Positions 561-63,115 of a DNA stretch of 64,000 bases are shown here, in pieces; the first letter of the stretch is position 1, and each line of letters begins with the position of its first letter. The stretch covers positions 5,084,001 to 5,148,000 of the forward strand of contig NC_089429.1 in NCBI RefSeq assembly GCF_026210795.1. Reading direction: 5' to 3'. The DNA comes from Rhizophagus irregularis. Taxonomy: Eukaryota. Under the pieces are notes generated by a model that saw only the letters and a program-made list of their open reading frames with translations, was not told the DNA's origin and ran no database searches. The position numbers and the translations under genes are program-made.

Positions 561-3500
561 AACATTTTTGATTTCTACATCTTTGTGCATGGGTATTAAC
601 TGGCTAGTGAGGATTTTTATCTGAAGCCAGTTGTTTGCTATTTGCAAACTTCCCAATCGCATCATCTTTCGCAATAGTCGGAAGAGAATTTTTTTAAAAA
701 AGGGGAAACCCTATAAGAAATTTTAGCGGGTTGGGAGTGTAAAAATGTGAAGTGTAAATAATTTTTAGTATAGTACATCATATTTATTATACAATATGAT
801 TTTGTTACGAAATCCAATAATATTCGTTATCATCATCATAAATTATAGAAATACGCGAAAAAAAATAATAAATAATTGTTTTAACATAAAAATAACTCTT
901 TATTTAAGTGACTTCATATACAACTAATAAAATTTGTTCGACACAGTTCAAAAAAAAACAAGTATTTTTTTCTAATCTCGTAAAACTTCAATTTAACAAA
1001 CATTATTCCTTTTTATCGGAAGGATGTAAAATAATAATATATCGGTCAATAGTCAATACTCCCCCTCATTTTTTAGGAAATTTAATTGGTTTGATATAAA
1101 TGATATAAATGTATAGTAAATCTTTGTAATACGGGGGGTATAAACGTGGGGAAAGTTTATCAACTTTATCATTCATGCATTCTCTTTATATGCTGATATA
1201 CATCATTTTTCTCGGGTCCTTTACACCAAAAACTATGAGAATAAATTAATGTTTATCGGGATCTCTATTTGTGTAATTCGTTTAAATGAATAATAATTTT
1301 TCACCTTTTTTACCTTTGTAAAACATAATCAAAATATTCTCTCTCCCCCTGCAGCCCAAACATATTATAAAGAACTAGAACTCCGTTCGAACAAAGAAAT
1401 TAAAATCAACTCTATCATGATCAAAAGATAATGATCAAATTGGTCAATGCATAATGTGTTTTGCAACCTACGGAACTTGTATTTGTGAAACAGTTTGAAC
1501 AGTTTGGCGCTACTTTCATCACTGAGTTATCAGATGAATTGTATAGTATATACTAAACTAGTAATTTATAAATTCTAGGAATTTTCATTCATGTATTCTT
1601 ACGGGAAGATTAAATTTAGTATAGCGTTGAAGAACACTCATTTCGAGCAAAATATTGAATAATGAAATTCTTTAACGAGTACTAAAAATATTTTTCTATA
1701 AAATCATTATTTTTTCGCTCGAGAGTGGATTTTCCGGATCAACTTACGCAAAAATGCTTATAATTATATTATATACTGCTAACGTTCAAAATCTAATTTG
1801 AGAAGAGGATTAAGCCATGTATTGTTTAAAAATAACGATTTTTTATTAGTATTATGATAGCACAATATTTAAACATGACAAAGCATTTAACGATAATTGA
1901 ATCAAATCACACATTGATTAATCAACAATTTCCTTAAAACGTATAATAATATGCAATCTTTATTATTATTATTATTTATAATTATACTTCATATTATATA
2001 CAACATAGCAGATAGTAATTGTGAAAAAAAAAAATTAAAAATAATATTTTTTTTTTGTACATTTTAAACCAAAAAATTTTTCTAAATAAAAAAAGAAAGT
2101 CATTTTAGATTCTATATACACACTTTATTGCAGCAGGTCTTTTGATTGCGCCTCCACGCATAAGAAAATACCCGTTATCGGATGTTTATATATACAGTAT
2201 ATATATATATATAATGATATACTATCTTTTCAATATAACGCCACAAAAAAAAAAAAAAAAGTTTTTGTCTTATAAGTTAAAATAGGAAAAAAGAAAAAAA
2301 AATTATTTTAACTTTTTTTTTTTTTTAAATTTAGAACCGAAATTAATTACAGGGAACAAATCCGGAGAATTCTATTTTTTTTGTAAAATTGTATCATTCG
2401 ATGGGGTTGATCAAACAAAACAATGTAACCATTCCCTTACATTCTAAAAAAAAAATATAATACATATTATAATGAAGAACAAAATAATTACCATAAAAGG
2501 CTCATTTAATTTCTGAAGTGGAATTCCATATTTTTTCAAATGGCGTAGCGTGATTAAACATAAATTATTGGTAAATTTTATTTATAGAAATTGTGAAACA
2601 TGTAAATCCTAATGAGGTTTTTTTTTTTTTTTTGAGGAGAAAGCTAAATTTTTTACTGATTGACATTTGAATTTATGTCATTAAGTATCAGATGAAGAAC
2701 TAATTAATTAATTTTCTCCTTAATCTACGTTTTTTTTTTTAAGTAAAAAAAAATCATCATCTTTTAAACACATGATTGTTAAAATCCACCAATTATTTAA
2801 AAATTTCTATTAATAAAGTTTTTTTCGTTCAATTCTGTTGTGTAAATTAATTAAATTTTGTGATTCTTTTTTTAATATATTAAAATAGTCATTATAATAT
2901 ATTTTGTATATGTATTTTTAAAAATATTTAGGATTTTTACGAATTTAGAAATTTTAATTAATTACAAACAAATAATTTTAATTAAATCCGAAAAAAAAAA
3001 AAAATTTAAGATTTTTTTCTAAACCTTACTTCTTTTACTTCCCTTACTTCTCTTACTTTCCTTACTAGGATATTTATTATCATACTCGGATGACAATAAT
3101 GACAATATCAAAAAAATCATACAAGTCATACGATATCAGAATTTTTTTTCTCCGACAATCATTTGATTTATCCGATAACGAATTTGAGATTCCCGTTTAA
3201 TCTAGTCACATTTCGTTTTTAATTATAACGGAAAGATCTCAATATTGTCAAATAAAGAAATCTTTGATTCAAGATCTTTGTACAAGAAAAAAAAAAGAAA
3301 AGAATACAGTATGCAATATGCAATGAATAAACAGACTATCCACTAGTAATCGACATAAAATCGTGTGCCAAATATAAACAAAGAATTACTGAATATAGTT
3401 AACCAAATTATTAGAATCGATAACAGGTAAATTTTTTTACAACCGTTAATAATTTGCATTGGCTGAAATGTGATTAAAACTGCGAACAATTAATAATTTA

Positions 3501-4621
3501 TTTTAAGAAAGTTGATCTTTTGAAAAATATGAATTTTATTTTTTTTAATGTATCTCAACTATCCTTTAAACTTTATTGCTCTATTGAAATTAATTTGATT
3601 AATTTGTTGCGGTGTTTGCGGTGTTTGCGATATAAAAATAGCTCAATTAATGCAATAACATCTGGTTTGTCTGGTTCTTCCAAATTCTAATATTAAACCT
3701 ATAATAGGTAATTTAAAAAAAAAAGCGCATTTATGTAACATTTATTCCGAACCATTTATTTATCTCCTTATGAATTTCAATATTTAAATCCTATTCTCTT
3801 TGCTAATCATTTTTCTATAGATAAAAGTATATTAAATATAGAATAGAACGAAAAGGTTTAAAAAATTTTCATTGTCTTTGTTAAATATACTATTATAAAT
3901 TTATCCTTTGTTTTGCATATTCAAAGTTTTCCGCTATTTTAAATATTTTTTTTTTTTTTTTTTTATCAACAAAAAAAAAATTTAAAAGTGATTATTTGTT
4001 AGATAATTATCCATAAATAATATTTTATTCCTGCAGTGAAAAAGTCTTGGCAAAACATTACACATAATATAATATATAATATAATATATATAATATAATA
4101 TAATATTATATAATATAATTTAATATAATTTTACATTAGAATCGGCAATAGGTCGGTTGATGCGTTACGTGATCATTTAAGTTTGTTACTATTTTTATCT
4201 TAACCGCATGGTTAGCCAAATTTGGTGGAAAAATTATATTATAAGGTAACACAACAAAAAAAATTCTTTAATATATAAAAGTAACGGGGCCTTTAACTTT
4301 TTTTTTTTTTCCTCACTCTTGAGCGAATCTTGCAATCTAAGAATATATTTTTTATTTTATTTTTCATAATAGCTTTTTTTTAGCTAAAGATTTTCTAGAA
4401 AGCAATTTTTGTTCGTAAAAAAGAGTCTAATTGAAACTTTAACGTTTATTTTTTTCATAAAAAGCTTTTCTCAAAAAAAACCAAAAAAAACAATAACAAT
4501 AAATTCGTTTTCAATATAATATATATATTTTTTTTTTCGTAAAATTTTTTTCTTATAACGTCGTTATCATTTGATATATATTTCTTTTTTTTATTTTTTC
4601 ACGAAACTTTTTTTTAAAATA

Positions 4622-5365
4622 ATGAAATCTTCGACTTTTTTCGCTACTATTGTAGCTATTTCCGTTTTATTATTTTCCGTTGTACCTACGAACGCTTGTG
4701 AACAAAGTTGTCGTACTGGTATTTCATTAGCATTTGGAGACAATTACTCCATAGAGGTCGATAAGTTATTCCCAACACTCGAAGATAATTTAAAAGATAA
4801 TTGTCTTAAAGGATTTAGTGGAAGTGTTTCATCATCAACCAAATCATCATTTAACAAAATAATTGAAGATGAAACTGATAAATGTAAAAAAGCTTTCACG
4901 GATAATTTTGCAAAATTAATTGAGGATTCAATTTTCAATCAAGTTCCACAATTTAAAGGACAATGTCAACATCCATTAAGAGTTAATCAACCACCAGCAG
5001 GTGTTGCTTGGACTATGGAAGATTGTGAAAATCAAGATTATATTTGTGGTAATCCTCCAGCTGTTTGTCATTATATGGATCAATATGTTAAACCAAGAAA
5101 TGTTAAAAATGTTAATGAATCATTGAAAGATCGTCTTTCTTCTAATGGTTCTTGCTTTAGTTCTCTTGTAAGAAGTTTAATAATTGCTGCTGCTAAATCA
5201 AATATTAAAGCAAGTGACCTTGGATCACTTGCTCAAACTTTTGAAGATAATATTGAAGCACAATATAATGATTTTGTTAAATATTTTGAAGATGAATTTT
5301 GTAAAGGAACAACTTGTGATAAATATGACCATGATATTAAGGTCAAACTTTTGAGTTATCCTTAA
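4622..5365 (+). CDS. Secreted cysteine-rich protein (247 aa, single exon), unknown function
   Basis: ATG at 4622; hydrophobic signal peptide MKSSTFFATIVAISVLLFSVVPTNA; 11 Cys including a C..QDYICGNPPAVCH cluster; uninterrupted ORF. Confidence 0.85.
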   Translation: MKSSTFFATIVAISVLLFSVVPTNACEQSCRTGISLAFGDNYSIEVDKLFPTLEDNLKDNCLKGFSGSVSSSTKSSFNKIIEDETDKCKKAFTDNFAKLIEDSIFNQVPQFKGQCQHPLRVNQPPAGVAWTMEDCENQDYICGNPPAVCHYMDQYVKPRNVKNVNESLKDRLSSNGSCFSSLVRSLIIAAAKSNIKASDLGSLAQTFEDNIEAQYNDFVKYFEDEFCKGTTCDKYDHDIKVKLLSYP

Positions 5366-7949
5366 AAAGAAAAAACAATAACAATAATGAATATTTATAA
5401 ATATACATTTATTTTAATTTTTTTTAGTATTCTAATTTCCCCCCCTTTTTTTTAATTTTATTTTATTTTTTTTTTCGAAATTATACGAAAAATTTAACAC
5501 GCACATAAGTACATTTTTTTAATTTAGAAAAAAAACAAATTGAGATTCATTTTTAAACTTTTTATTTTTGCATTTTTTTTCCACATTTTTTTTCTTTTTT
5601 CTCTTTTTTTTTCTAATTTTTTAATATAGAAAGTGTGTTTTTTAAATTTTGAAATTGGTGTGTTTTTTTATTATTATTATTATATTTAGAAGAAGAAAAA
5701 AAATTTAATAAATTGTCAAATAAATTGAAATAGTTTTAATAATTAATTTAACTTGTTTAAAAAGTGGTGTTTTTTTTTTTTATTATTTTTGTCAAAAAGT
5801 GTTACAATCGATCTTGCCAAGAAATTAAAAAATTTTTTTAAATTTCGGCGATCAACGAAATGAATTTCCTTTTCTTGTCCAATAAGTTATGAGTACAAAA
5901 TCAATTACATGCATATTAAAAAGAAAAAATTGTGTTAAGACTTTAAGAAGTACGATACGAGAATTTTAGAGCTCAATCAAAAAAAAAAAAATTTTAGATT
6001 TTGAATTTTTTTTTACGAGACAAAGTACGAGGAAGTAAATTAAGTAGTAGTGGTAAAACTTTTTGATATGTAGCTGTTAAGAAATTGAATTATTTGAACG
6101 GCCGATTCTTAATCTAGGTTAGGGATTTCCTTATATGGTTCAAAAATTATATTATTAACAAATAAGATCATTTTATATATTGTAACGCTTTTTTAAAAAA
6201 TTGTTTTGGTTTCACCACCTTCCTTTTGTTACCGTATATTTTTAGTTTTGAAACGGTAATATATTTTAGGTTTTGAACAATTTATAATTTATGATGTTAG
6301 CCAAAAATAAGCATAGTACAAAAATTAAAATATTAATTATACGTTTACAAGCCTAAAGTTCAATCGAAATTCATATTAATTGATTATACATTTACAAGCC
6401 CAGAGTTCAATCGGAATTGACTAAACTTTTATCACATAAAAATATTAAAAATATTAAAAAATACTGAATCATTGAGTTTCCGCGAATATTTATGAAAATG
6501 CTTTCTTAAAGGCTCTAAATACACCCAATTCAATAATTGTCCGAAACAGGAGCGAAATACTACGAAATTTTCGTCTATCTTACATGATTTACGCACACGT
6601 GATCAAGTGTATATACTTGTTAAATTTTGGTGTTAAATTTAACTTTATAACTTTCAATACTATTGGCGTGTTTAAAAGCTTAATAAACTTAATAATGAAT
6701 TTAGCAAATTTAATCTGAGATTATAAACAATTTCACAATTTCACAACCTAAAGAATGATTGATATCATTCATTTTTCTTCTTTGTTGAATAAAGAATCCC
6801 TTTGTTAAACAACGAATATCATATTGGTATATTTATCTGCGTCTCGTTTATTGAATCACCTCATCCATATGATTCGTGTTAATTTTGGGCAAAGCCCAGG
6901 CTGCCCAGTTTCACTGGAATAATGGTTTCCCGTATTCATGTGGTAAAGCTTCTCAAGTTTTGTTTTTTTATCCGACAAAAAAAAACACAATTACAATTAA
7001 AAAAAGAAAAATCCTTAGTATGAGATCAAGTTGTGCAGTGTGCCCTTTGATTTCGTAAATTAGGTGTTTCGTTATAGATGTTTTGACTGGTCGCTCAAAG
7101 ATGGGTTTACCACATCGGACTTGAGGAACTCAAGGCAGTGTAATTGGTATATCTCGCCTAGTTATTACTGTAAGGATTGTAAGGATCGAAATCACCGGAT
7201 ATACGGACTAGTTGGTAAGTAATACTTATACACATTTTAGTTATACACATTTTAGTTATACATTTTCGAAATTTCGTTTCGTCATGCATTTTGTTTCCCG
7301 AAAAATCCTATAATTTGGTCAATTCTATAATTGTTATCCGGTCACTTAATGGTTGGCTTCTTGGCAAAGAAGTCTTGTTAAGAAGCTAATGCGTATTATC
7401 ATTATCATATAATAAATAGATTTTAGATTTTGCGATATTTTATACCTAGGCTGCTAGGCATTTTTGGAGATCGAATTATAGCCCGGGATCATTTAGGCTT
7501 AGCCGAAAAAAATAATTTATACCACTGTTATCATATGACACACTGAACAAATGTAGTTACTGGTCACGGTCTCGTTTTCCCTATTGATTATAGTCTATTA
7601 ATCGCATCGTTCCATATTTGGATTAACCCCTATGAAGAAATATTATTTGGATTTCGAAAATACAAACCATCTTTCTTTGTTCACTAGGGGATCCGCTTTC
7701 CGGAAGGTATACAGATCAAATCTCCTGGAAATTAGTTGTCTTTAGCTGTAGAAGTTACGAAATAATCCAGGCATAGTGAATTCTGTTCGTGATTTTTGGC
7801 GGAATATTCTTCTAACTAGAGTGAAGAGTTACACGAGATATAAGAGTTACACGAGATATATTTCATAAGACCAATTTCTATAAATGTTGTTTCAATTATA
7901 CAACTTAAAATAAACGACTTAAAAAAATCTTTATTATTTAGTATTACAT

Positions 7950-9600
7950 ATTCCCCCCCTTTTCTCTTCACTCGCTCTTCCCTTTTTCCTTCTCTATTGC
8001 CCTTCCTTTCATTCTTTCAAACAGAAAGTGGACGCGATTTTGGTAGGGAAGGTAAGCATTTCTTCATTACTTTTTATTTTATTTGCTCTTCCAATGAACA
8101 GTTACTAACAGTTCGTTTGTTTTCCTATTTAGACAGTGGCTTTTTGGCTCCTTTGAACGCGTAAATTCCTCTTTTTTTTAGGTATTTGTTGTCAATTTCG
8201 GAGACTCTTGTAAAAATGGAGGTGGATATATTTTTTTATATTTTTTGTTTTTTAGTCTTAGTCTAATCTTTCCCTAATTTTTTTTAGGGTTTGTTTTCAT
8301 TTCGAACTTTGAACACATGGGGTGGTTTCTTCTTAATAATTTCTATTAACGAAACGTCTTCTAACGTTTCTTTCTTTCTTTTTTTTTTAGACGAGCCTGG
8401 ACACGTGAGATTTCGGTAAGTTCTTGTTTTTTCTTTTAAAAAATCTTTTTAGCGAAACGTTTGTTAACGTTTCAGTTTTTCTTTTACCCATTTTTTAGAC
8501 GACCGGTTCTTTAGATCTTCAGGCGCATGGAATTTTGGTAGGGATTTCGATGGACTTCTTTTGTATTGTTTTATTTAGAAACATTAACTGATGTTTCGTC
8601 ATTTTCTTTTTTTTTTAGATGGATCTGGAGAGTGTGAGAATCAAATCAATCTTTTGTTTTTACCAAAATTTATTTTAACGAAACGTTTACTAACGTTTCG
8701 ATTTTCTTTTTTTTTAGATGGTCAGGTCTTTAGAGCGTGGAATTTTAGTGGGTTAATTTATTTCTTTTGGAAATCTTGGTAGGCCATTTTATTTTTTCTT
8801 TGATGAAACGTTTATTAACATTTCTATTTTTATCTTTTTTTTAGATGATTTCTTCAAATATCTATAAATGTGGACTTCGGTAAGGGTTTATTGCTTATGA
8901 ACTATCTCTTTAACGAAACGTTTATTAACGTTCAAATTTTTTTCTTATGTAGCTTTGTTACAGCACCCTGGTCTGGCGTTAAAATTTTTTTTTTAGGTTT
9001 TTTTACTTTTAATAAAACGGAATGTCTAATAATATTTCATTCTTTTATTCATGCAGTTTAACACTGGTTCTTAGGATTCAGGAAGTCAGATTGCGGTAAG
9101 TACCTTAATTTTTTTATATTTTTTATTTTTAATAAAATGAAACATTTACTAACGTTTCTTTCGTTTTTTTTTCTTTTGCAGTTGTAAATTTTAGGTGGCT
9201 CTTAGTAAGTTTTTCTTGATTTTTTTTTGATCTTAATGAATTTAACGAAAATTAGTTAATGCTTCTTTTTTTCTTTTGTAGGTCTTGTATGACTTTGAGC
9301 GCGGATTTCAAGTGAGTTCTTTTTTTTTTTACTTTATTCAATGAAACGTTTACTAACGTTTCATTTTGCAGTTTGTAAGTTGTTTATTAGACAGACTTAC
9401 ATGGATTTTGGGGAGTGGATTTTTTTCTTTAACATTATTTTTCAACGAAACGTTACTGACATCAGTTTCGTTTTTTCCTCTTTTTTTATCGATAACTGGC
9501 GTGTTGGAGTTCTGTATGGTTTCTTTTGAATTATTTCTTTTGCGAAACAATTACTCTGTTTCGTTTTTTTTCTTTTTTCCTTGTAGGAAGCTGTCCCCGT
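7950..9600 (+). other. Micro-exon/hairpin-branchpoint intron array 1 (about 14 units, probably a non-coding transcript)
   Basis: CT-rich leader 7951-8020, then repeated GT(A/G)AG ... GAAACGTT-TACT-AACGTTTC-like hairpin ... poly(T)-(T/C)AG units with 20-45 nt exons, e.g. exon 8391-8415 and perfect stems at 8679-8700 and 9340-9365. Confidence 0.7.
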
Positions 9601-9840
9601 TAAAATAAATTTATGGGCAATTTTTATCATAAAAAAAATTACCAGTGATCAAATGAGAATGGAATAACATCTATTAGCTTTTTTTTATTAGTAAACGTAA
9701 AATAGCGCAATAATAAATATATTTTTTTTATACATTTAATTAAATACATAAATATATGTGATATGTCATGTGATAATATATCATGGGTTACATAAGCTTT
9801 TTCTTGATTCACAGCATGGGCTGCGTGATACATGTACTGT

Positions 9841-21639: not shown

Positions 21640-21790
21640 GAAAAAGTAGAAAACTTGCACTTACCAAAATTTCACATCCGAGGAAACCTAAAGAGCCACC
21701 TAAAAAATGTAAAATGTTAATAATAATGTTCGTTTAAAGAAGGTAAAATAATAAAAAAAAATTGCACATACCAAAATCTTGCGTCAAAAA
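21640..21790 (-). other. Minus-strand fragment of a micro-exon array related to array 1
   Basis: Reverse complement reads gacgcaagattttg|gtatgt...tttttag|gtggctctttagg...ttttg|gtaagt and shares ttttaggtggctctt with about 9190. Confidence 0.45.
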
Positions 21791-22769: not shown

Positions 22770-24070
22770 CTCTTTCCTACACTTTCGTCCTCTTCCATTT
22801 TTACACTTTTGTCTTCCCCTTTCCCAATCTTTTTCCTCTTCTCTTTTTTTATATTTTTTAGACGGCTTCTCAGTTCTTTGGATATGGATTCTAGTAAGTA
22901 TTGTAATTTTTTTATTTTCTTTATTTTGGTTATTATTTTGTTGCATTATTCATATATTCTATAAATATAATATGACATTTTTTTATTTCATTCATGCAAA
23001 AAAAAAGAAAAGTTACACTTTATCTTTTAAAAAACGGCTACTACGGTTGGTTCTTTGGCTTTTGGAGGCATGAGAACTTTGGTGAGAAGGGTTTCTTTAA
23101 TTTTTTTCAAACTTATCTTAATAAAACATTTTGCTAATATTTTTGTCATTTTTTTCATATGTCATTTCAAAGGGACTTAATTCGAAGGTAATATCAAAAA
23201 TTATTCCTTTTTTGATTTTTATGTAACAAAACATCAACTAACATTTTGTGTTTTGCATTTTGTAGCTTAGACGGCTTTAGACAGATGTGGATTTCGGTAA
23301 GTGATTTTTTTTTCTAACACTATTTTTTTTAATTAATGTTTCATTCTTTCATTTTTTTAGATGGTTAGTTCTTCAGGACGTGCGATTTATGTAAGGAATC
23401 AAATATCTTTTTTTAACAATAATTTATTTCTTCAATGAAATGTTTACTAATGTTTCATTATTTTATTTATTTTTTTTAGAGATCCAGTTGGTAAGTTTAC
23501 GAATTTCTAACTTTTTTAGGAATCTTACCCAATTTTTGGATTATGGAACTGAATCGTAAATTTTTAGATACAATTCGAAACTTAAAAAAGTATTTATTTT
23601 TTTAAAAAAAAGAGAAATTTTCGAAAATTAAAAAATATAAAAAAAGAAGCATTTTATTAACGTTTCCCCATTTACTTTTCATAGGATTCAGTCACGATAA
23701 TTAGAATGCTGAGTTTCGTATGTATTATTGCGAAACTTATTTTTAATATTTTTTAAAAGAAAAGTTTTGTAGGACTTCGGTCGATCCAGCCCATAGAGAA
23801 GTTTTGAAGGTAATGTTACTTTCAGTATTTTTTTTTTTAAGGGAACAGGTTTACTAACTGTTTCCTTCTTTTTTTGCTTGAATTAGCTATCCCGGGCATG
23901 GATTGGTGGATGGTAAGTTTCGAAGTGTCTTTCTTTGGAACTTTATTTATTTTTTTATTAAAGAATCGGTTTACTAACCGTTTCTTTATTTTTTTTGTAG
24001 GTTTCCCTTTGGACTTTTATTGGATAGGCGGTAAGTTTCAAAGTTTTAACTTCAAAACTTTAATTTTTTT
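22770..24070 (+). other. Micro-exon/hairpin-branchpoint intron array 2 (about 11 units)
   Basis: CT-rich leader, then GTAAG/GTGAG donors and poly(T)-AG acceptors; hairpins aatgaaatgtt-TACT-aatgtttcatt (about 23434), ggaacaggtt-TACT-aactgtttcc (about 23842) and aagaatcggtt-TACT-aaccgtttctt (about 23961). Confidence 0.65.
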
Positions 24071-41737: not shown

Positions 41738-41932
41738 GATTCAGGATTCCGTTCATTTTCTTATTGAAGGCAGTGAGATAGCAAACCAGGTAAATTAACA
41801 GGTAAGCCCCTAGAAGGCCTGTAGATCTGTAGGAGAATAATTGGGTAGGAGCACGGATCTTTGAAAAAAATACATTCGGCAATTGAAGATTAGGTAACTA
41901 TAAATTAGTACTCGATTTAATAGAACGAAAAA

Positions 41933-44440: not shown

Positions 44441-44523
44441 TAAGATAAGCACTTCTTAGTTATCTTATATTTTTTGTATAAAAAACCTATATTACAACTG
44501 AACACAATTCATAAATACATCAA

Positions 44524-46915: not shown

Positions 46916-47060
46916 TTGCTAAGAACTGGTAGGTTTATTTTTTACCGACATACCGTGATGGCATAATTGAATAAACCTATAGAACATGTAATCTTACGAG
47001 ATACCCAAATGCAAAACACCGACGGATTAGGTAGACAAGACGACGAAAGTTTCCACACGT

Positions 47061-47602: not shown

Positions 47603-47680
47603 TTTTGGTGCATGCTCACGAGAAAATAAAAGATTGTTGTCTTCATACAAAATCTAAATAAGAAATAAAAGAAAAGTATA

Positions 47681-50560: not shown

Positions 50561-51922
50561 CATCAGGAAATTATATAGTGCGAAAAGTTGCGCAAGTTTA
50601 CACATCATAATATTTCGTAAGCTTCCAGACTCGCCGCAAGTTTGCGTAAGCGTAATATTTTGTAACTTTTTAAAATATTTCGAAATATTACGATATGCAA
50701 AGCTTCATAATTTTACGATTTGTAATATTCCGTAATTTTGCAGTTCGCAATATTTCGTAATTTTACATAATATTTCATAAGTTTTCAGATCCGCCGCAAG
50801 TTTGCGTAAGCGTAATATTTTGTAACTTTTTAAAATATTTCGAAATATTACTGTATGCAAGGCTTCATAATTTTACGATTCGTAATATTCCGTAATTTTA
50901 CTGCGTAATACTTCGCAACTTTTTAAAATATTTCAAAATTCTATGATGCGTAATATTCCATAATTTGACGATTCGTAATATTCTGTGATTTTACACAACT
51001 TAATATTTCGTAATATTTCAAAATATTTCGATAAATAATACTTCATTTTCTGTACTATAAGTTTATATAATGTATGTTTTATTAGATATAATCATAAAAA
51101 ATTACAAGTATTTATTAATATATACAGAATACATAAAAGTAAAAAAAAGAAAGAGTAGAGTAACAATATTATTAGACGTAAAAAGAAGAGAAACAGCTAT
51201 AGTAACGTTAGTATTAGATATAAAGATAAAAGAAATATTGTTATTATTGTTAGTATTAAGGTAAAAAGAGTTAAAGAAACAGTAAAAGGAGTAAAAGAAA
51301 CATGGATATTATCGTTAGTATTAAAGTACAAGTAAAAAGAAATAAAGGAAACGTAGATAGTATTGTTAGTATTACGACATAAAGTAACAAAGAGGTAAAA
51401 AAAAACGCGTTAATATTAAAATAATTAGTATTAATAAATAAATATTTCTATACCTGCAAAGTAATTGAACAAAAGAATAAAGAAATAAAGAGAAAGGAAA
51501 AAATAAACATGTTGTTAGTATTGTTAGTATCGTTAGTATTAAAGTACAAGTAAAAAGGAATAAAGGAAACATGGATATTATTGTTAGTATTACGATACAA
51601 AATAACAAAGAGGTAAAAAAAAATGAAAATAATTAGTATTAATAAACAAATATTTCTATACCTGCAAAGCAATAAATTATGAAATATATGTAAATATATT
51701 GTATATAATTAAAGAAATAATAGAAAGAAGAGACAAAAAAATTAAAAATATTGAACAAAAGAATAAAGAAATAAGAAACAAAAAAAATAAGACAAAAACG
51801 CGTGCATGATTAAATGATTAAATGATTAAATCACATGCAAGGATCAGCCTAATTTTGATTGGCCAGAAAATACGATATCGTAAAATTACGGAAATCCGCA
51901 TTTTAAAAAATCACAGAAATTG

Positions 51923-52135
51923 TATATGCACAATTACTAAATATTATCCCCTCGTGATAAATTAAAAATTATCAACACAAATTCAACACAAATTTAACAA
52001 ATTTAACGAAATTTGGCCAAAATTAACAAATTTTTACCAGAATTATCAACACAAATTGAACACAAATTGAACACAAATTTCAGCCATGATTTATTTATGT
52101 CACACCCGTGTTGTTAAGAATTAATAACCATTTTA
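51923..52135. repeat. Left arm of a long internal inverted repeat (partner 59195-59413)
   Basis: About 210 bp with aacacaaatt sub-repeats and atgtcacacccgtgttgttaa, reverse-complemented at 59195-59413. Confidence 0.85.
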
Positions 52136-52752
52136 TTTATTAAAACTATATTAATTATGGTAAAAAAAAATGCTATTACGTGTGATATATATAAAAAATA
52201 ATATTTATTTCCTATGCAACCCATAATTCTCTAATAAACTATTTACATACCGACCTTCCTCCTCCATGTTATAAGAGTCAATAGAAAGTATATCATCATC
52301 AGCTATGCCATCATTGGCCGCACCATCGTTGGCCGCACCATCGTTGGCCGCATCATCATTAGCCGCACCATCGTTAGGCCTACCATCGTTAGTCACACCA
52401 TCATCAGCCGCACCTGCTCTATCGTCAGCTGCTCTATCACCACCATCATCTACATCATTACCATCATGAGAATCATCGTCCGAATGTGTAAATTTATCCC
52501 TATTTTCCAACTTTTGCTAAAAATCAATAAATAAATAAATAAACTGTAATTCAAATAATTCACATTTTGCAAATTGTAAATTAAAAACTTACTAAGTTGT
52601 TGATTATCTTCGACTTCATTATACTTTCGCTCATTTGAATGTTTTGATTATTAGGATTTAAGTACGTTTCACATATGCTAATCGCATACGCTATTTGTGT
52701 TTTTGAGGGATTTTTATTTTCTTTTCGCAACTTATCAATTATCAGCGACATA

Positions 52753-54104
52753 CAGTCCCCTCTCGATATAACGAACCCTAGGTTCCAGCTGATCAGGGTT
52801 TCGTTATAAGCAACTTCGTTAATACTATAACGAATTCTTCGGTATAGGAATATTGGTTATACAGATCATGTGACTTGTTGATCTGATTACCGATAATTTA
52901 ACATTTTTTTTAATCTTTTTTTTATAGGGGTGCTTTCTAAACTTCAAAATAGATGCCTAGAATGAGAAGTAAGTGAGAACTGGAGGTTTTTTATATTAAT
53001 TTCATTTAAGAACATTTACTAATGTTCTTTTTTATTTTTTTTATTGTAGGGAACTTCCTGGACTTCAAAATGGACGCCTGAGACGAGAAGTAAGTGGGGA
53101 ACTCAATTTTTTTTATTTAAGAACATTTACTAATGTTCTTTTTTTATTTTTTTATTATAGGGAACTTCCTGGACTTCGAAATGAACGCTTGAGACAAGAA
53201 GTAAGTGGGACAACTCAATTTTTTTTATTAATTTCGTTTAAGAACATTTACTAATGTTCTTTTTTATTTTTTTTATTGTAGGGACTTCGAAATGGATGCT
53301 TGAGACAAGAAGTAAGTGGGACAACTCAATTTTTTCTTTTAATTTCGTTTAAGAACATTTACTAATGTTCTTTTTTATTTTTTTTATTGTAGGGACTTCG
53401 AAATGGACGCTTGAGACAAGAAGTAAGTGGGACAACTCAATTTTTTCTTTTAATTTCATTTAAGAACATTTACTAATGTTCTTTTTTTATTTTTTTATTA
53501 TAGGGAATGCTTCCTGAAGTGTTCTATATAAAAATGTTTATTATAATTCCTTTTTTTTGTAGGAATGCTGTTTAACAATAACTGACTATATAATAAATAA
53601 ATTATTAATGATATATTAATTTAACTAGGAATGTCCTTACCCCTGTGATAAATATAAATTAATAACAATTCACATCAAATCCTATTACAACCGAATTAAT
53701 GTAAATTAATGTAATTCTGCCTAAATATTAAATAAAATAGCCAGAATTATTAATCTTGATACGATCCTAATACAATCCTGATCTATAATTTAAATATAAA
53801 ACACAGGGGTGATATTTAATGTCATAATGCATCAATATTTATTAATAATTACATTTAATTATAAACTATAGAAATTCTTCGTTATAACTGAAAAAAAATT
53901 CGTTATAAAAAAAATCTGTTATATCGAAAGGCATTTTTATATAAGAAATTCACACACTTTACTTTGTACTACGTTATACAGTAAATAAATAGTAAACTTC
54001 ATTATATCAAGGTTTTTTTCATATTTAAAATCGGTACCACACTGTATGATCCGTTATATCGTGTTATTCGCTATATCGAGGTTCGCTGTAGAGAGGGGTG
54101 ACTG
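52753..54104. mobile_element. Non-autonomous pogo/Tc1-mariner-type element (1352 bp) carrying micro-exon array 3
   Basis: Imperfect TIRs cagtcccctctcgatataacgaacc versus cagtcacccctctctacagcgaacc; TA on both sides; removal restores the host frame. Confidence 0.85.
52921..53560 (+). other. Micro-exon/hairpin-branchpoint intron array 3, young tandem units of about 110 bp
   Basis: Five introns GTAAGTG...AAGAACATT-TACT-AATGTTCTT...TAG; exons of 41, 40, 40, 30 and 30 nt. Confidence 0.8.
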
Positions 54105-54999
54105 TATATGTCGTAGGTTGCCCATCTTTAACCTTTTTAAATAGGTTGTTGTAACATCTTTTCACCTCCGCCTTATTCTTCCATTTCTGAATCTTTGACG
54201 GACTAGCCTGAGTGTTAGTAGACGGTAATTTATGCCCAGTCACTTCGAAAACAGAATACATAACGTCTTTAACTCTAGACGTGAACGTCCCTCATATGCT
54301 TCTATGTTGTTGTACTAACTATTAAAAAAAAATGTTAGTATGAAATTTAATAAAATTCATAATTGCTTTAACTTACAGTCGGGGCAATTTTTTTTTCGAA
54401 AAAAATAATCCATTGATTTTTTTTGAACTGGCGCATAAATTCCGGATTTTCGTCTTTTAAATATTTTTCAGTAGCGAGTTTGTACTCGTCTTGCGAAGGA
54501 TAAACAAAATTTTCAAATAAAATTTTTGACACCTTCTTAACGAGCTTCTAATCAAACGAGGTTAGCATTTCAGGTTTACATTAAATAATATTCATCTTTA
54601 TTACCTTTACATACTCCGGATCTATTGTATTATTATTATTTTTGTTATTATCGTTGAGCTTTTTTTCTATGCTCGAGAGACGGGTTTCAAGATTTTTTTG
54701 TCCGGTGATAAGAACTTCAAGCTTAGAAATTATCTGCGAATTGGTTCTTAATAGTTTTTCTATTGTTTTTTTATTAACTTTAACAATAAAATATAATTTA
54801 ACTATATATTATATAATTTCTTTTATAAAGAATATGATACATATTATGTCATATATACCATCAACACTATCATCGGATATTCTCACTCGCTTCTCAGCTT
54901 CGCTACCCTCAGTACTACATTTTGAAAATCTTTCATTATCGTCAATTCTTCGTTTCTCGCCACGCTTTGTAGCCATTATGATAATAAATTTGAAACGAA

Positions 55000-55098
55000 A
55001 ATATGAGAAAAAGGAGGAAATATATGAGAAAAAGGAGGAAATATATGAGAAAAAAGAGGAAATATATGAGAAAAAAGAGGAAATATATGAGAAAAAGG
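55000..55098. repeat. 21-bp tandem repeat (about 4.5 copies)
   Basis: atatatgagaaaaa(g/a)gaggaa. Confidence 0.85.
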
Positions 55099-56119
55099 TG
55101 AACTAGAAAATTCGAAAAGGATGAGGAAAAAGGGGGAAATACATGAATCAGAAATTCAGAAAAAGAAGGCAAGCTGTCATAAGGTAATTTCCGCCATTCT
55201 ATACTAAAAAAGAAAAAAAACTTGCGAAATATTGCGAAAAATGAATGAACTAATGCGAAATATTACGAAAAATGAATGTACTAATGCAAAAATTTTGCAT
55301 CGTGATATTACGAAAAAATATTGTAACACTTTCATAAGAGAACTTTAAAAAAAAACTCTCGTAAAAGCACATAATACAATCGAAATATTAATCAAATCCA
55401 ATTTATAAAAAAATAACATGTTACACATGTTGGGGCTTTTATGCATGGAAAAAAAAAGTTGCAGCCAGTGAACTCATTTGGCTGATCAGATTGATAGTGA
55501 TCTTGAGCGCTTATAACCTGATTATCGCATAAATTTGTGGCTGATCATCTGTCCATTATTGTAAAAGTGATTTGCCGTGTTAAGCCAATAAATTTGCGGC
55601 TGATTATCAGATGATTAGCCGATTGAATAAGCCATCCGAATTCTTACAGCCCGTTACAGCAAATTCAAAATATGCGAAACACTCAGCACTTTTGCTGTCA
55701 GATTCACTTGGCAGGTTGCCGGCAAATTGAAATAGTAAATAAAATAATAAACAATATTTATATGGTACATCATAGACTTGTTACATTTATTTTTAGATTT
55801 GCCAACCCACGAACTTGGCAAGTTCCCGACAGCAAAATTGCTGAGTGTTTCGCATATTTTAAATTTTGCTATAATGCGTAAAATTGCGAATGATTCCGCG
55901 ATATTAGCCACCAGATTCTTACAGCCAGTTCCATTCATTAATGCGTAAATTTGCGTAGTCGTGTCTATTCAAATAACTTAATCAATTGTAATCCATTCAA
56001 TTAATTCATTAAATTTTTACAATGAATTTGCAATATAATTTTATTAGCACATATAATCTTATATAAATTAAATAGTGAATTGATACTTTTCATCAAATTT
56101 GACGCGTTAATTTAGTAAC

Positions 56120-59099
56120 ATGAGTTTCAAATGCCCCCTTTGTATGCGAATATTCAGTCAACGCTTTGCATATACTCAACACGCCCAAAAATGCTTAAAA
56201 AATGTAGAAGTAGAAGTAGAAGATGATGATGATAATAATGATAGTGAAAAATATAGCAGTGAAATGGATACAAGAAGTAATCTAAGTAGTGAATATGAAA
56301 ATGATAAAGTTGAGGTAATTATGTTATTCCAGATTATTCTTTTTAAAGAAAAAGCTCAAATTATACTAACTCATTTTGGTTTATAATTTTAGGTGGATGA
56401 TGATAATAATGTACAAAATATGTCATTTGACAGTATTGGAAGTGCAATATCAGAGATGAGCCTTGAAGATAGTAACTTTGAAAATATATTAGATTCATCT
56501 GAAGAGCCTGAAATTTTTGAAGAACCCAAAAATCTCAATACCAAAACTTGCACAGAATTTCCTAATGATGCTTATAAAGATCTAATGTTATTAGTAACGA
56601 AATATAAAATAAACAATAAAGGTGGTAATGAAATAATACGTTTTTTTAATAAACATTCAAATCTTACAGAATCACCATTACCAAAAAATATTGAACAGGG
56701 ACTAGCATTTATGAATAATATGAAGTTTTCTAATTTAGAATTTAGTAAAGTTCTTATAACAAAACATAAGGATAAAGATTATTTTCTTTATTATCAAAAC
56801 TTAATACAGTGCATCAAAAATATCTTAACTGTTCCTGACATAACACAAAATTTTGCGCTATCTTACGAAAACTATGAGGTAAATAGTAAATATTAGTTAA
56901 TTCAATAATTTAAATAATATTTATTTTAATTTATTTATATTATTTTATAGTATAATAGAGAAAGTATTTACAGTGAACAAAACACTGGAAAATGGTGGAA
57001 AACTACGCAAGAATCCTTACCTACTGGTTCCAAATTATTATCAATTATTTTATATTCAGATGCAACAACTACAGATACATTAGGAAAAAGTCAATTGCAT
57101 CCAATATATATTTCATTAGGCAATATCCCAATATGGCGTCATAATAAACAGGATGCAAAGCAACTTTTGGGATATTTACCAATTTTAGAAGCTGCAAATA
57201 AAGATCTGGTTCGTGATACCTTTCATAAATCTTTACGTCATTTACTAGAACCAATTATTTTATTAAAAGATGGTATAGACCTTTTTATAAATAATGAAAA
57301 TACCTGGTTTTATCCTAGAGTTTCAACTATTATTGCAGATTGGCCAGAAGCCGCAAGTTTTTGTTTAGTTTATAAATCCTCCAATTCAAGCCTTCCATGT
57401 CACTCCTGTTTAATTAAAAGGGACAATCTTGCAAATATAAACTTATCGGTTAATGATGTAATACTAAGAACTCATGATGAAATGCATAAATATTTTGAAA
57501 ATGATACACAAAAATCTGTTTGCATAGAATCTGTACCTAATTTTTTTGGGATTTGCCGTAAGTATGCAAAAGTAGAAATAATTATAATAACATATATATA
57601 TATTAATTATAAATATTTATATTATCAAGGAATATAAATATCTACTTGGCTACTGTTCCTGACAGAATGCATCATTTAGATTTGGGTTTATTTCGTTATC
57701 AAATTATCTTCACGTGCGATATCTTAAAATTGCAACATGTTAATGGTAATAAATTAGTTGAAGAAGTAGATTGCCGTCTAGCAGCAATTCCACGTTTTCC
57801 CGCCATTAAAATTTTTTCCAATGGACTGCAGTCAATTGCAAGATTAACTGCTAATGAATATCGAAGTTTGATGAAAGTCATGATATTTGTTATTGATAAT
57901 TTATATGATGAAAATAATAACGAAGTAGATAATTTTGTAAATAATGATGATCTTGTGAAATTGTACGAATATTGGAATGAAATGTATATTTTAAGTAGAT
58001 ATGAAGAATTTAGTGAAAGTGACTTGGAGAAATTTAATATATGTATTAAAATTTTAGTAAAATCGAAAATTTAAATTAAATAAATTAAATTAACATTTAA
58101 ATTTTAGGATGCAATACATAGATGGGCGCGGATGTTTGTCAAGGCTTTTAAATTTGTTTCTCCTTCCAATTTGAAGTTGCCTAAATTGCATTCATGGGTT
58201 TATCACATTATTGACTCAATACGATCTTATGGCGCAATAAATGGCTATACCACAGAAACTTACGAAAGTCTCCACAAATATTTCGTTAAAATACCCTACC
58301 GAATTAGCAATAAAAAAGATGTCGAACCTCAGCTTTTACAAACTGTAAGTATTTGGAAATTTATTTATTGTATATATTTATTATATAACTTAAGATGGAA
58401 ATTAAATTAATAGATAAAACGTCAAGCAATATCTATTAGAATGTCTCAACATTCAGTGAATCCAGCAAAAACACCTCGCACTTGTAAATTTTCTGCAAGA
58501 CTCTTTGATTTCTCTTTACAAGATGCAAATACATTTTTTAATGAAAAAAAAGATTCCGTAGACAATAAAATGCAGACCGGTTTTGCTAGATTTATAAGTT
58601 GTCTGGATTCATATCTAGATTTACTTGATGGGTTCACAATTATTGGTGAAACCCGAATAAACATATACGGATCGGTAACACTGGAAAATGGTGCCATAAT
58701 GCGTGCCACAAACAGGTATCATAATAAAGTATGGTTTAGCGACATAGCTATTTCAATGGATTCTGAAGAATCAAATGATTATATATCAGACAAAGGACTT
58801 TGTTATGGACAGGTATTTTTCCAATTTATGTAATAATTTATTATAAAGTATTAATAAATATTTATTATTTATAGGCCTTATTGTTAGCAGAAGTATTAAC
58901 AGACCCACCGCTAAATCTCGCATTAATTCAATGGTACGATTTTAAATCTAAAAGGAACCCATATTTATATGGATGTCCTCACTTAAAATTGATAGAATTA
59001 TATAACTTTGTAGCTATAGAGTCTATACATGGTGTCGTTCACATAGTACCCCGATTTGATAAACAAAATGAATATTTCGTAAATAAATATATTTTTTAG
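56120..59099 (+). pseudogene. Plavaka-type (CACTA-related) transposase with N-terminal zinc finger, about 7 exons
   Basis: CPLC...H...C finger; LYSDATT...HPIYISLGNIP; IIADWPEAA; VPDRMHHLDLGLF; PKLHSW...ESLHK. 1-nt frameshift near 57541 and a mutated donor near 58040. Confidence 0.85.
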
Positions 59100-59194
59100 T
59101 CACTTGATATAGGAGTTTTGATTTATTTTAATAAAATTATATCCTTAAAGAATTTATGGTCACGTTTCCCATATCATAAATAAAATGCAGATTT

Positions 59195-59413
59195 ATTTAT
59201 TTAATTATTAACAACACGGGTGTGACATAAATAAATCGTGACTGAAATTTGTGTTCAATTTGTGTTCAATTTGTGTTGATAATTCTGGTAAAAAATTATT
59301 AATTTTGGCCAAATTTCGTTAAATTTGTTAAATTTGTGTTGAGTTTGTGTTGAATTTGTGTTGCGTAATTTTTTATTTATCACAAGGGGATGATATTTAG
59401 TAATTGCATGTAC
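59195..59413. repeat. Right arm of the internal inverted repeat
   Basis: Reverse complement of 51923-52135. Confidence 0.85.
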
Positions 59414-59630
59414 GACGTACAAGATTTTTTTTTATGATTTTTTTAAGAAATGTACGCAAAATATTTAATCAGAATATAATTGTTTTATTTTTAAATATGA
59501 TATATTGATGATTTTTTTTTTAAAAAAAAAAATTGATTTTTTTAAAATTCAATAGAATGTGCTAATAATAAATTAGTTTATTTTTAAATATAATATATTG
59601 ATATTTATATTTAAATAACCAAAACATGTA

Positions 59631-60919
59631 CAGTCACGTCCGAAAGTGACGCCCGATTTAAAATTAATGCCAAAAATGGCAAAACTTTATTGATTTTCAT
59701 TAAAATTCACATAAAAAATAATTACTAAAAATGGTTAATAATGTGTTGGCCCTCCCCTTGCTTCTAGTACTGCATTTATTCTTTGTGGCATTGAAGCAAC
59801 AACCTCTTCAAAAATGGAGCAATCCAAATTTTCCCATTCTTCACTTAGTGCAACTTTAAGTTCATCCACAGTTCTTGGAAAGACTTTACAACTCTGGATA
59901 TTGTCCTTTAACTGCTTCCAGATGTTTTCTATTGGATTTAGATCGGGAGAATTTGCCGGCCAATCAATAACCACAATTTTATTCTTCTTCAACCAATCCT
60001 TGGTTATTTTCGCGGTATGTATGGGTGCATTATCCTGTTGAAAAATTGCAGCCCTTCCTGTTAACTCATGAACTGTATGCTGAAATGGATACAGATATGA
60101 ATTTAGGATTCTAATGTAAGTATTTGAATTGATTTTTTCATTTCCTTCTTTATTTTCATCACAAAAAATTAATGGCCCTTTTATCCCTCCTGCAAAACAT
60201 CCCCAAACCATGACTGATTTTCGACCACTTTTAAAGATAGGTGTCAAGCATTCAGTGTTAAACCTTTCCCCTGTGTGTCTCCAAACTCTTATTTGTCGTG
60301 ACTGCTTGCCAATCTCAACACTTGATTCATCTGAGAAAATAACTTGTGCCCAATCATAAGCTGTTTTTTCTTTATATTTTTCACACCAACTAATACGAGC
60401 TAATGCATGCTTTTCTGAGATAAAGGGTTTTTTTGCAGCAACATGGGAATAAATTCCAACACTATGTAATGCTCTTTTAGCAGTTGTAAGGCTGCAATTT
60501 AAATCTAATGTATTAATGACTTCATGTAAAGGTTCGCGTCGATCTTGTGTAACTTTGTTTATGAGTGCATTTTTCTCATTATTATTGAGAGCAGGTGGAC
60601 GCCCCGATCTAGGTAAATTTTCAGTTTTCCCTGTCTTCTTGTATCTGTCAATAATTCTTCTTATTGTGGTGGGGTCACGACCAATTTTTCTTGCTATTTG
60701 TGCAGGGTTAAAATTCTCCATATATGCTAGTATTTTTCCTTTATCTTGAGAAGTTAACTCAGTTCTATGTGACATTATTTTTTTAACTTTGCAACGCGTT
60801 TATTAGGTTATGAAATTGTGAGAAAAACATTTAAAAATAAAAAAAAGGGGGTATAAATAATGTAAATTTTGTGTATCGTAACACCGTACAAAATCGGGCG
60901 TCACTTTCGGACCCGACTG
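59631..60919 (-). mobile_element. Tc1 element, full length
   Basis: 29-bp TIRs cagtc(ac/gg)gtccgaaagtgacgcccgattt; TA TSD in a catgTAcatg context. Confidence 0.95.
59735..60775 (-). CDS. Tc1 DD34E transposase (346 aa, intact)
   Basis: N-terminal HTH and GRP; FSDES, FQQDNAPIH, SPDLNPIEN; 34 residues between the second D and E. Confidence 0.95.
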   Translation of the reverse strand: MSHRTELTSQDKGKILAYMENFNPAQIARKIGRDPTTIRRIIDRYKKTGKTENLPRSGRPPALNNNEKNALINKVTQDRREPLHEVINTLDLNCSLTTAKRALHSVGIYSHVAAKKPFISEKHALARISWCEKYKEKTAYDWAQVIFSDESSVEIGKQSRQIRVWRHTGERFNTECLTPIFKSGRKSVMVWGCFAGGIKGPLIFCDENKEGNEKINSNTYIRILNSYLYPFQHTVHELTGRAAIFQQDNAPIHTAKITKDWLKKNKIVVIDWPANSPDLNPIENIWKQLKDNIQSCKVFPRTVDELKVALSEEWENLDCSIFEEVVASMPQRINAVLEARGGPTHY

Positions 60920-61217
60920 TACATGATTTTTAATTATTTTTAATTGAAATCAAACTAAGATCTTTTTTTTTAAAAAAAAATTAAAATAAATTAAGTGATT
61001 TATATTTATATTTAGAATCATGATATTTATATTTAGATAATCCATATCCGCATGAGATTTAATTAATATGTTTAATGATGAAAAGTCTAATAAATTAAAT
61101 TTTAATTGAAACGAGAAATAAAATCAAACCAAAGAGGTATTGTTCAAATTTTATTTAAAGTGACATTTTACGACTTTCTTTCAAATTTTTACTCATCCCA
61201 AAATCAAATTACTAATA

Positions 61218-61871
61218 ATGCCTCGCCACACACGTCGTCGTTCCCACTATAACGTCCATTGGAACTAAGCTATGATGGACGAACTTGTTGATATACGCCG
61301 AGACAGAAACTGCGCCTACCACAATATTAATGGTAGAAGCCGCCAAGATTTTTGGGACTCTGTTGCCAATAGGTTCATATGACTAATATCTATAATTTCT
61401 TTAAGAAAGAATTTAAATTCAAATTAACCAATCCATTTAATTGAATCAGAATAAATAGAATATTTCGAACGAGGGTTTCTGGGCAACAGTGCAGCCAAAA
61501 GTGGAGGAACCTCGTCAGGGATTACCATGTAAGTAAATAAATAACATTACATTCATATAAATTAAATGTATTTACCGAATATTCAAACTGATTTTGATAT
61601 TTAGAACTATGTCCTTTATCGTAATGGTAACCTTGGGCAGCGGCTGTGGACGCGTACCGGCGTAAGATATTATCGCGAATTTAGAACGAGATTTTGGGAG
61701 AGGCCGGGTAATTATACTATAATAAAATTTATAATTAATATTTACGTTCATGTTTTAAATTTGATAAATTTGATCAATTTTAGTCACGCGTGATGATCGT
61801 AGGGCAAGGAGAAACTTACCTACGTATCGTAAGAAGATAATTATTTTTATTTTTTTATTATTTATTAAGTG
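61218..61871 (+). pseudogene. Myb/SANT-like (trihelix-type) DNA-binding protein gene, spliced, one premature stop
   Basis: Not in the ORF track. Spliced translation MPRHTRRRSHYNVHWN*AMMDELVDIRR...FWDSVANR|INRIFRTRVSGQQCSQKWRNLVRDYH|NYV...WTRTG..YY.EF...FWERP; 3' end uncertain. Confidence 0.7.
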
Positions 61872-62220
61872 AGTAGCTAGGCCCAGTCCGTACCAAATAT
61901 CGGCTGGAGACTCACGTTTTTTTGGGCTGTGACTGATACTGACGTCCACGCCGTACAGCCTGGGTACTATTTTATAAAATAGTAGCGAACAAGTATCAAA
62001 TGTGTATTTTTTTTATTAAGTTATAATAAAAATTAGAATTTACTTTAATTTTTAACATAAAAATTGTAAATAATAAAAAATTCGTAAATAAAAATAAATT
62101 TGCTTTCCCAAACTTAAAAAAAAAGGTGTTTATATAAAAGAAAAGGTGTTTATATTATTTTTGATTATTCAATAGTATCACATGCCCCTTGTATACGTTC
62201 TACTGCATATGCAGTTTACA

Positions 62221-62720
62221 ATCTCGTAAATTTTTGAAATATTTCAACCGTAATATTACGCAGGTTTACAGTTTCGTAAATTTTTGAAATATTTTAACCG
62301 TAATATTACGCAGGTTTACAGTTTCGTAAATTTGCAGAATATTTTGATCGTAATATTACGCAGGTTTACAGTTTCGTAAATTTTCAAAATATTTTAACCG
62401 TAATATTACGCAGATTTACAGTTTCGTAAATTTTCGAAATATTTCAACCGTAATATTACGCAGGTTTACAGTTTCGTAAATTTTCGAAATATTTTAACCG
62501 TAATATTACGCAGGTTTACAGTTTCGTAAATTTTCAAAATATTTCAACCGTAATATTACGCAGGTTTACAGTTTCGTAAATTTTTGAAATATTTCAACCG
62601 TAATATTACGCAGGTTTACAGTTTCGTAAATTTTCGAAATATTTCAACCGTAATATTACGCAGGTTTACAGTTTCGTAAATTTGCAGAATATTTTGACCG
62701 TAATATTGCGTAAATCTTAC
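62221..62720. repeat. 50-bp tandem subterminal repeat (about 10 copies) of the Plavaka element
   Basis: taatattacgcaggtttacagtttcgtaaatttt(c/t)gaaatattt(c/t)aaccg recurring at 62251, 62301 ... 62701. Confidence 0.92.
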
Positions 62721-63115
62721 GATATTGAAAACTTACGTAATATTTAACCGTAATATCACATAAATCTTACGAAATTGTAAACTTACGTAATATTTTGAAA
62801 TTTTTCGAAATATTATGCCATAAACTTTCGTAAACTTACAAAATCGTAAACTTACGCAATTTTTCGCGCTATAAAATTTCCTAATGTAATATTAAGAGAA
62901 AATGGAAAAGATATTGAAATACCAATAGAATATGAAAATAATGACGAAAATATTAATGACAATAATGATAGTGATGATAGTGAAGATGAAGATAGTGAAA
63001 ATGAATATGAAGAAACAAGTGAACGAGAAATATATTTAATAAATAATGAAGAAAAAGGACATATTATAGAGGAAAACTATTAGGTCTTGGCCATAATAAT
63101 GGAGAGACATTAAAG

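Follow-up and report, generated by a model that had tools for sequence, protein, structure and literature searches.

In a 64,000-nt stretch of the Rhizophagus irregularis genome (the window, which is AT-rich and holds many kinases and transposons), a tandem run of very short exons and introns, array 1, is very probably a non-coding spliced member of a dispersed family of exon-plus-intron cassettes. Array 1 expression was followed in eight of 24 listed runs (16 were left out), using raw reads and contigs from the same species, and spliced poly(A) RNA from the array was seen in reads and contigs from three studies. The joints, all GT..AG, were present in three of four raw-read runs (X21–X23, poly(A), from one study) and in two contig sets (X8 and X6, from two other studies), and those in the contigs are identical to those in the reads; the fourth raw-read run, X24, contained none of them. 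RNA-seq junctions, which the initial annotation had proposed as a check, thus bear out the splicing it predicted. DNA-like contigs (X15 and X1) run through the introns in genomic letters and hold none of these joints, and because the X15 contigs follow the genome in this way, a DNA copy does not account for the spliced form. With about a quarter of each run sampled, the main joints drew 10–41 reads each: 17/23/17 (X21/X22/X23) at 8051/8133, 28/23/30 at 8537 to 8619-8633 to 8718, 35/41/37 at 8747/8845, 24/13/15 at 9095/9182, 25/11/16 at 9204/9282 and 15/10/12 at 9311/9372. The libraries were unstranded, so the strand was read from the GT..AG borders, and the transcript ends are approximate (start at about 7706 or 7954). 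The exon model to 9311 sums to 442 nt, the length of the X8 contig. The features of array 1, in window coordinates, are as follows.

7706..9718, + strand: array 1 transcription unit, poly(A), spliced, likely non-coding (contig X6 7706-9718, X8 7954-9708)
7954..8051, + strand: exon 1, pyrimidine-rich 5' part (start 7706 in one contig)
8052..8132, + strand: intron 1, imperfect branch-site hairpin (junction reads; fold)
8133..8221, + strand: exon 2, 89 nt (minor donors 8161 and 8182)
8288..8288, + strand: probable 1-nt exon (G) between introns 8222-8287 and 8289-8390, in about half of reads
8391..8415, + strand: exon of 25 nt, then intron 8416-8498 with hairpin (letters between joints and loose ends)
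8499..8537, + strand: exon of 39 nt, then intron 8538-8618 (RNA joints)
8619..8633, + strand: exon of 15 nt ending at a cryptic donor (RNA joints)
8679..8700, + strand: perfect 9-bp branch-site hairpin in intron 8634-8717 (z −3.73)
8718..8747, + strand: exon of 30 nt (alternative donors after 8751 and 8778; acceptor 8844)
8845..8879, + strand: exon of 35 nt, then intron 8880-8952 (RNA reads)
8953..8970, + strand: exon of 18 nt with cryptic donor, then intron 8971-9056 (loose end in 20 reads, one X6 contig; length arithmetic)
9057..9095, + strand: exon of 39 nt, then intron 9096-9181 (RNA joints)
9182..9204, + strand: exon of 23 nt, then intron 9205-9281 (RNA joints)
9282..9311, + strand: exon of 30 nt, then intron 9312-9371 (alternative acceptor 9509)
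9340..9365, + strand: perfect 11-bp branch-site hairpin (z −3.82)
9372..9718, + strand: last exon with two decayed, retained intron-like units (contiguous contigs, flat depth)

About 12 introns are spliced out and the two last, decayed ones are retained in the last exon (9411-9490, which has lost donor and acceptor, and 9514-9586). The roughly 14 units originally described are therefore real exons and introns, but not of the sizes first given (20–45 nt exons, roughly 70–100 nt introns): internal exons in use measure 1–39 nt, with one of 89 nt, introns measure 60–102 nt, and the last two units stay in the RNA. Splicing is efficient, with a depth of about 1–2 in intron bins against 22–26 in adjoining exon bins, and both perfect hairpins lie in introns that are removed in this way. 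The hairpins are hence no block to steady-state splicing, and the suggestion that they hide the branch point does not hold in effect. Beyond the 3' end, at 9720-9830, RNA depth falls below 1; array 1 as the 5'-UTR of a kinase fragment (9864 onwards) was rejected on the depth below 1 between the two.

Several exons use cryptic donors, and alternative donors and one alternative acceptor occur as well. Exon 8619..8633 has probably lost its ancestral donor, judging from sister units, and together with the retained last units these cryptic and alternative sites look like ongoing decay. Reads carry an extra G after three different upstream donors (five with and six without it among main-donor reads in X23). 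The simplest and probable explanation is that G8288, flanked by AG and GT, forms an exon by itself, and an allele is also possible (the DNA at 8361-8393 is masked); one-base exons have been reported in fungi (PMC12940212). At 8171-8190 an acceptor-like AG abuts a downstream donor (8181/8182) that some reads use, an arrangement like that of a recursive splice site.

The transcript is likely non-coding. Its longest ATG open reading frame, 49 codons across seven exons, is reached by 39% of 1000 shuffles (p=0.39), in keeping with the earlier impression that no convincing frame exists. Between 8391 and 9311, six of nine exon lengths are divisible by three, a hint of coding; at family level, exon lengths are random modulo three (31/29/27, p=0.87; 87 unique exons parsed by script, taken from a non-redundant set of 23 of the 48 loci). 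Polyadenylated, spliced, longer than 200 nt and devoid of a significant frame, the RNA belongs with the lncRNAs. A protein search with a frame crossing a related array returned a self-like fragment only. An Rfam search of the array 1 introns found no family at gathering score and one chance-level match (E=0.37); the idea of a host for structured intronic RNAs thus fails for known classes, and a snoRNA or other known ncRNA host was rejected. Mirtrons are whole introns that fold into one long hairpin, and array 1 introns were not assigned to them, as they carry local stems of 7–11 bp only.

Both hairpins quoted in the initial annotation are present at 9340-9365 and 8679-8700. A local fold of −5 kcal/mol or better was found in eight of 14 array 1 introns, in none of eight candidate coding introns and in 121 of 167 introns of related arrays; a different window gave 7/13, 0/6 (an overlapping set of coding introns) and 104/167. 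That most introns carry a stem-loop is barely true by folding, and a perfect TACT-loop hairpin occurs in just two of 14. Candidate coding-gene introns lack the hairpin in this small control of script-predicted introns, in line with what had been claimed for neighbouring kinase introns. Whole introns with z ≤ −2.39 against dinucleotide shuffles number four of 14, one of them by way of a different structure, and GTT-N4-AAC taken by itself is no commoner in the window than chance allows (29 occurrences, 21.3 expected; six of 100 shuffles as high). A repeat search recovered a 44-nt branch-site segment as a family, with seven copies in array 1 and two in array 2. With only two perfect hairpins, and four of 14 introns beyond shuffles, array 1 is a worn copy: its hairpins and donors are decaying and strong donor hairpins are absent from it. 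Its CpG observed/expected ratio of 1.42 lies in the top 10% of window tiles, which is not decisive.

The exon-plus-intron unit forms a dispersed family, found at three further sites in the window and at 48 metagenome loci. A profile of 65 units, drawn solely from seven loci with transposon ends, matched 11 units in array 1, five in array 2, five in array 3 and one solo unit, and a reversed-sequence control gave two weak matches.

22860..24060, + strand: array 2, units of the array 1 family (unit profile)
21695..21776, − strand: single family unit (unit profile)
52930..53510, + strand: array 3, five young tandem exon-plus-intron copies with a period of about 111 nt (profile units 52969-53504)

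The metagenome loci were retrieved by an exact 20-nt hairpin pattern, a selection on perfect hairpins that inflates hairpin frequency; all 48 hold additional hairpin-motif matches, and the pattern had no matches in viral contigs or prokaryote genomes. From composition and shared transposon ends we infer that these loci come from arbuscular mycorrhizal (AM) fungi. Extrapolation from four sites in 64 kb suggests that the family is very abundant, and DNA depth at the hairpins (2032 versus about 123, X15) is a qualitative sign of further copies. T-rich repeats with short palindromic cores at 32820-33080 (+) weakly resemble decayed units and gave no profile match.

Exon ends within array 1 are themselves related (mean identity 0.35; none of 2000 shuffles exceeded 0.32). 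In array 3 the perfect hairpins are identical and three copies match at 96%. Tandem duplication of the whole unit is seen in array 3 and in locus L016, and repeats of part of a unit occur in L017, where about 20 copies of the hairpin alone, without splice sites, lie just inside the left end, and in L036, where acceptor plus exon is repeated alone. In many relatives the donor, too, lies in a hairpin (113 of 167 donor regions reach −6 kcal/mol or lower, versus 27% of shuffles). Of 167 family introns, 116 have the branch A paired at P>0.5, and family introns are CpG-rich (observed/expected 2.7). In 10 of the 48 loci a last-exon sequence of about 50 nt is conserved though other exons drift (L006, L013, L014, L015, L017, L019, where it is internal, L036, L040, L042 and L047); it is absent from the window. 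In L034 two convergent inverted copies of the array end (3017-3506 and 4007-4545) form a fold-back that could give long dsRNA.

Across paralogues (24 of 25 pairs aligned; the pairs are not independent), differences amount to 9/267 at GT, 14/290 at AG and 45/965 in stems (31/483 in the 5' arm, 14/482 in the 3' arm), compared with 399/3791 in exons and 825/8914 at other intron positions, so that splice sites and stems change two to three times more slowly than exons. Statistically, selection has acted on splicing and not on exon content. The picture of diverged exons with persisting splice signals and hairpins is thus right for the family, on both differences and covariation; in array 1 itself, donors and hairpins are decaying. 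Covariation of the stem arms, which had been put forward as a further check, is present at family level. Among 70 units sampled from 129 irrespective of hairpin, the named 10-pair stem is 68% paired, against 33–54% in slid controls, and its covariation score was reached by none of 500 shuffles and exceeds all slid controls. At the outermost position of the stem, 69 of 111 cases show a Watson-Crick pair (38 expected), reached by transversions and switching among A-T, C-G and T-A, and with 23 distinct perfect arm pairs the stem sequence varies as the pairing persists. Pairing is kept between families. RNAalifold returned no consensus pairs on the 70-unit alignment, probably owing to loop-length variation that shifts the register.

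G-U pairs show no excess over A-C mismatches in branch stems (12 vs 17), at the outer pair (10 vs 12) or in recent changes (6 vs 8); a looser branch-stem count gave 27 G-U vs 13 A-C (p=0.04) and donor stems lean to G-U (28 vs 15, p=0.066). The strict counts give no sign of RNA-level selection on the stem, and neutral decay of dead copies could mask a wobble bias. The paired arms are strict Watson-Crick palindromes, which a DNA-level process fits at least as well as an RNA switch. Template switching is described as making and repairing perfect stems at the DNA level (PMC8794818); like the family, it would leave perfect stems without RNA-level intermediates, which fits the lack of wobble bias. 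Unlike what that process predicts, the array family has no excess of recent double changes (1 double compensated stem change vs 0.34 expected among close paralogues, a comparison of low power).

Relatives of array 1 sit in DNA transposons. PlavakaB elements have CATCA..TGATG ends and 2–3 bp duplications (PMC12730594), and ends of this type face the array in nine of the 48 loci (L005, L013, L014, L017, L025, L033, L034, L036 and L040), a lower bound given that most contigs are 1–3 kb. Both ends are present in L017, the sole array locus with two, where a clean 2–3 bp duplication is absent; CATCA is exact in L034 and one base off in most others. One right end is common to L013, L014 and L040 and one left end to L005 and L036, each with unrelated flanks and hence at different insertion sites. 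The end type matches the PlavakaB termini published in PMC12730594 and those of a Plavaka-encoding element in the window, within which array 3 lies.

50561..62886: PlavakaB-type element, 12.3 kb, with CATCA-type ends, TA duplication and Plavaka transposase
52753..54104: non-autonomous element holding array 3, 1.35 kb, Tc1/mariner-type, with terminal inverted repeats and TA flanks

Subterminal repeats of 25 and 50 nt are present in the larger element, and a Tc1 element (59625-60925) is nested in it. Tc1/mariner elements are marked by CAGT..ACTG ends with a TA duplication. The array 3 element, nested in the Plavaka element, bears this signature of non-autonomous members: its TA-flanked arms (52750-52777 and 54080-54107) are 79% complementary, and it starts with TA-CAGT as does the Tc1 transposase element at 59625-60925. 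Inside the left end of the Plavaka element, at 51200-51660 (−), lies an intron-like duplicated stretch with many TACTAAC motifs and no hairpin. No CATCA..TGATG-type terminal inverted repeats were found around array 1 (7700-9720), where a CAC-type look-alike end at 9647 lacks a partner. Neither array 1 nor array 2 showed terminal inverted repeats of any type or a target-site duplication, so for these two arrays the case for a transposon origin is one of unit homology only. In L016 the array precedes a DUF7869 reading frame, which we take to be a Sola-like transposase. In L038 a TET/JBP dioxygenase gene (PF12851; 216-1697, −) lies beside the array, and the array terminates in a hairpin like that at a Helitron 3' end.

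Introners are structured spliceosomal introns that resemble one another within a family and have a link to DNA transposons. The arrays differ in that the flanking exons are homologous and duplicated with the intron and in that the hairpin is missing from all eight candidate coding introns. An introner or introner-like element was rejected on the related flanking exons of array 1 and on array 3, which repeats both exon and intron; the introner-like spread first proposed gives way to joint copying of exon and intron in tandem and movement inside DNA transposons. As for PlavakaB elements (CACTA/EnSpm-related), the array relatives share CATCA/CATCG-type ends and subterminal repeats with them. They are unlike in that the available part of PMC12730594 describes no internal tandem micro-exon array with hairpin-paired splice signals, in that array 1 has no detectable ends, and in that the cassette also occurs in a Tc1-type element.

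We favour, at about even probability, the reading that array 1 is an old, immobilised and still-transcribed relic of a transposon-borne splicing cassette, with a licensing step included. Such a history would comprise the transcription and efficient intron removal observed in array 1, and tandem duplication of the whole unit or its parts, as relatives display and as is plausible for array 1. Cassettes would have been carried at different insertion sites in non-autonomous PlavakaB-type and Tc1-type elements, and splice dinucleotides and stems would have been held as exons drifted, in line with the family-level rates. Selection at the level of the element may then have favoured transcription and clean splicing: by analogy, spliced RNA could be handled as mRNA and not fed to RNAi, which would spare the element from silencing and keep it accessible to transposase. 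Template switching or a palindromic binding site could be the DNA-level route that keeps the arms paired. Array 1 would be a stranded copy that has kept its promoter and on which constraint is relaxing, with donors lost and cryptic sites substituted. In Cryptococcus, splicing efficiency is reported to decide RNAi targeting of transposon RNA (PMC5851062), and the spliceosome-coupled RNAi (SCANR) described there would give a reason for selection on transposon RNA splicing, one carried over to Rhizophagus by analogy. We advance more tentatively, as somewhat doubtful, the general form of this reading, in which DNA transposons of several superfamilies in AM fungi would have gained a transferable anti-silencing module of tandem non-coding micro-exons with donor and branch sites in covarying hairpins, so that their RNA is spliced repeatedly and licensed as self. 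On this view selection would favour the act of splicing and not anything it yields, and new multi-exon transcripts, array 1 among them, would arise from the module.

One alternative is that the hairpins are RNA devices that slow or gate spliceosome assembly, acting as splicing sensors or as tuned siRNA sources via stalled spliceosomes; the host may have turned them against the carrier transposons. The stems lie exactly over the splice signals, at the branch A and the donor, with pairing well above shuffles for the donor, their arms covary, the convergent inverted arrays of L034 could yield long dsRNA, and 41% of R. irregularis small-RNA loci are given as unannotated (PMC8647823). Such gating would nonetheless be unlikely in view of the efficient splicing of array 1 through two perfect hairpins, branch stems that show no preference for G-U by any of the three strict counts, and the lack of strong donor hairpins in array 1.

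Rather improbable, too, is that array 1 has been domesticated by the host as an lncRNA gene, for instance by giving rise to stable RNAs from its introns or by regulating the kinase genes clustered nearby. It is expressed, with the same splicing, in data from three studies that bear two organism labels, and no transposon ends were found around it. Against this, array 1 has lost several of its ancestral donors, its final two introns are dead, its hairpins are decaying, there is no Rfam match, and the unit is one of many dispersed copies.

We regard as similarly improbable that the palindromes act as DNA, either as sites for transposase or accessory proteins or as cruciforms aiding mobility or duplication, with splice signals accrued only so that the palindromes are removed from read-through transcripts. 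The hairpin-only repeats of L017, the strand-symmetric pairing, the CpG-rich family introns and the TET/JBP gene adjoining the L038 array all speak for such a role. A sequence-specific protein, however, needs no change of the kind seen in the 23 distinct perfect arm pairs, GT and AG are conserved equally with the stems, and similar units lie within elements of different end types.

Runs of short exons and alternative splicing also characterise schistosome micro-exon genes (MEGs) and SP7-type repeat effectors. A micro-exon gene making variable short peptides by alternative splicing is highly improbable here and was rejected: the multiples of three and the frame over seven exons are offset by a frame length ordinary among shuffles and by the lack of frame symmetry across the family, unlike coding micro-exon genes, a 1-nt exon and a donor 4 nt downstream shift the frame, and exons are the least conserved part.

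A partial parallel is offered by Blumeria hordei, a transposon-rich biotrophic fungus in which lncRNAs arise from transposon sequence, the highlighted ones being antisense (PMC10648671). These are likewise non-coding transcripts of transposon origin; the array 1 transcript is unlike them in being a tandem homologous exon-plus-intron cassette with conserved splice sites and stems. The anatomy of the array is apparently unusual and undescribed. No description of hairpin-bearing micro-exon arrays was found in a literature search that most subscription papers and supplements lay outside, and the available portions of PMC8647823, PMC11075540, PMC13465315 and bioRxiv 2022.10.19.511543 contain none, although the transposon library of PMC11075540 may hold such arrays unclassified. 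In that source about half of the R. irregularis genome is given as repetitive and two-thirds of transposons as unclassified, and the curation kept domain-less elements with terminal inverted repeats (TIRs) only up to 1 kb, a limit by which array elements of roughly 1.4–4 kb could have been missed.

From the young, perfect array 3 to the old, decaying array 1, the arrays form a natural series for testing splicing-based protection from RNAi or methylation, the role of splice-signal hairpins in vivo, and the origin of introns and spliced transcripts by tandem duplication. They also call for caution in annotation, since they can be mistaken for multi-exon genes.

The window has several other features of note. 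A U4 spliceosomal snRNA gene (Rfam RF00015, 71 bits) lies at 579-712 (+). At 4622-5362 (+) is the gene for a 248-aa Glomeromycota-specific protein with a hydrophobic N-terminus, several cysteines and no precomputed Pfam domain; it shares 97% identity with a protein of Rhizophagus irregularis, and all its named relatives belong to AM fungi. The stretch 41900-48740 holds a DNA polymerase B fragment of the protein-primed type (PF03175), and DUF5906 is weakly matched there. Palindromic inverted-repeat elements of about 0.5 kb lie at 45500-46036 and 48239-48736, and another starts at 63926.
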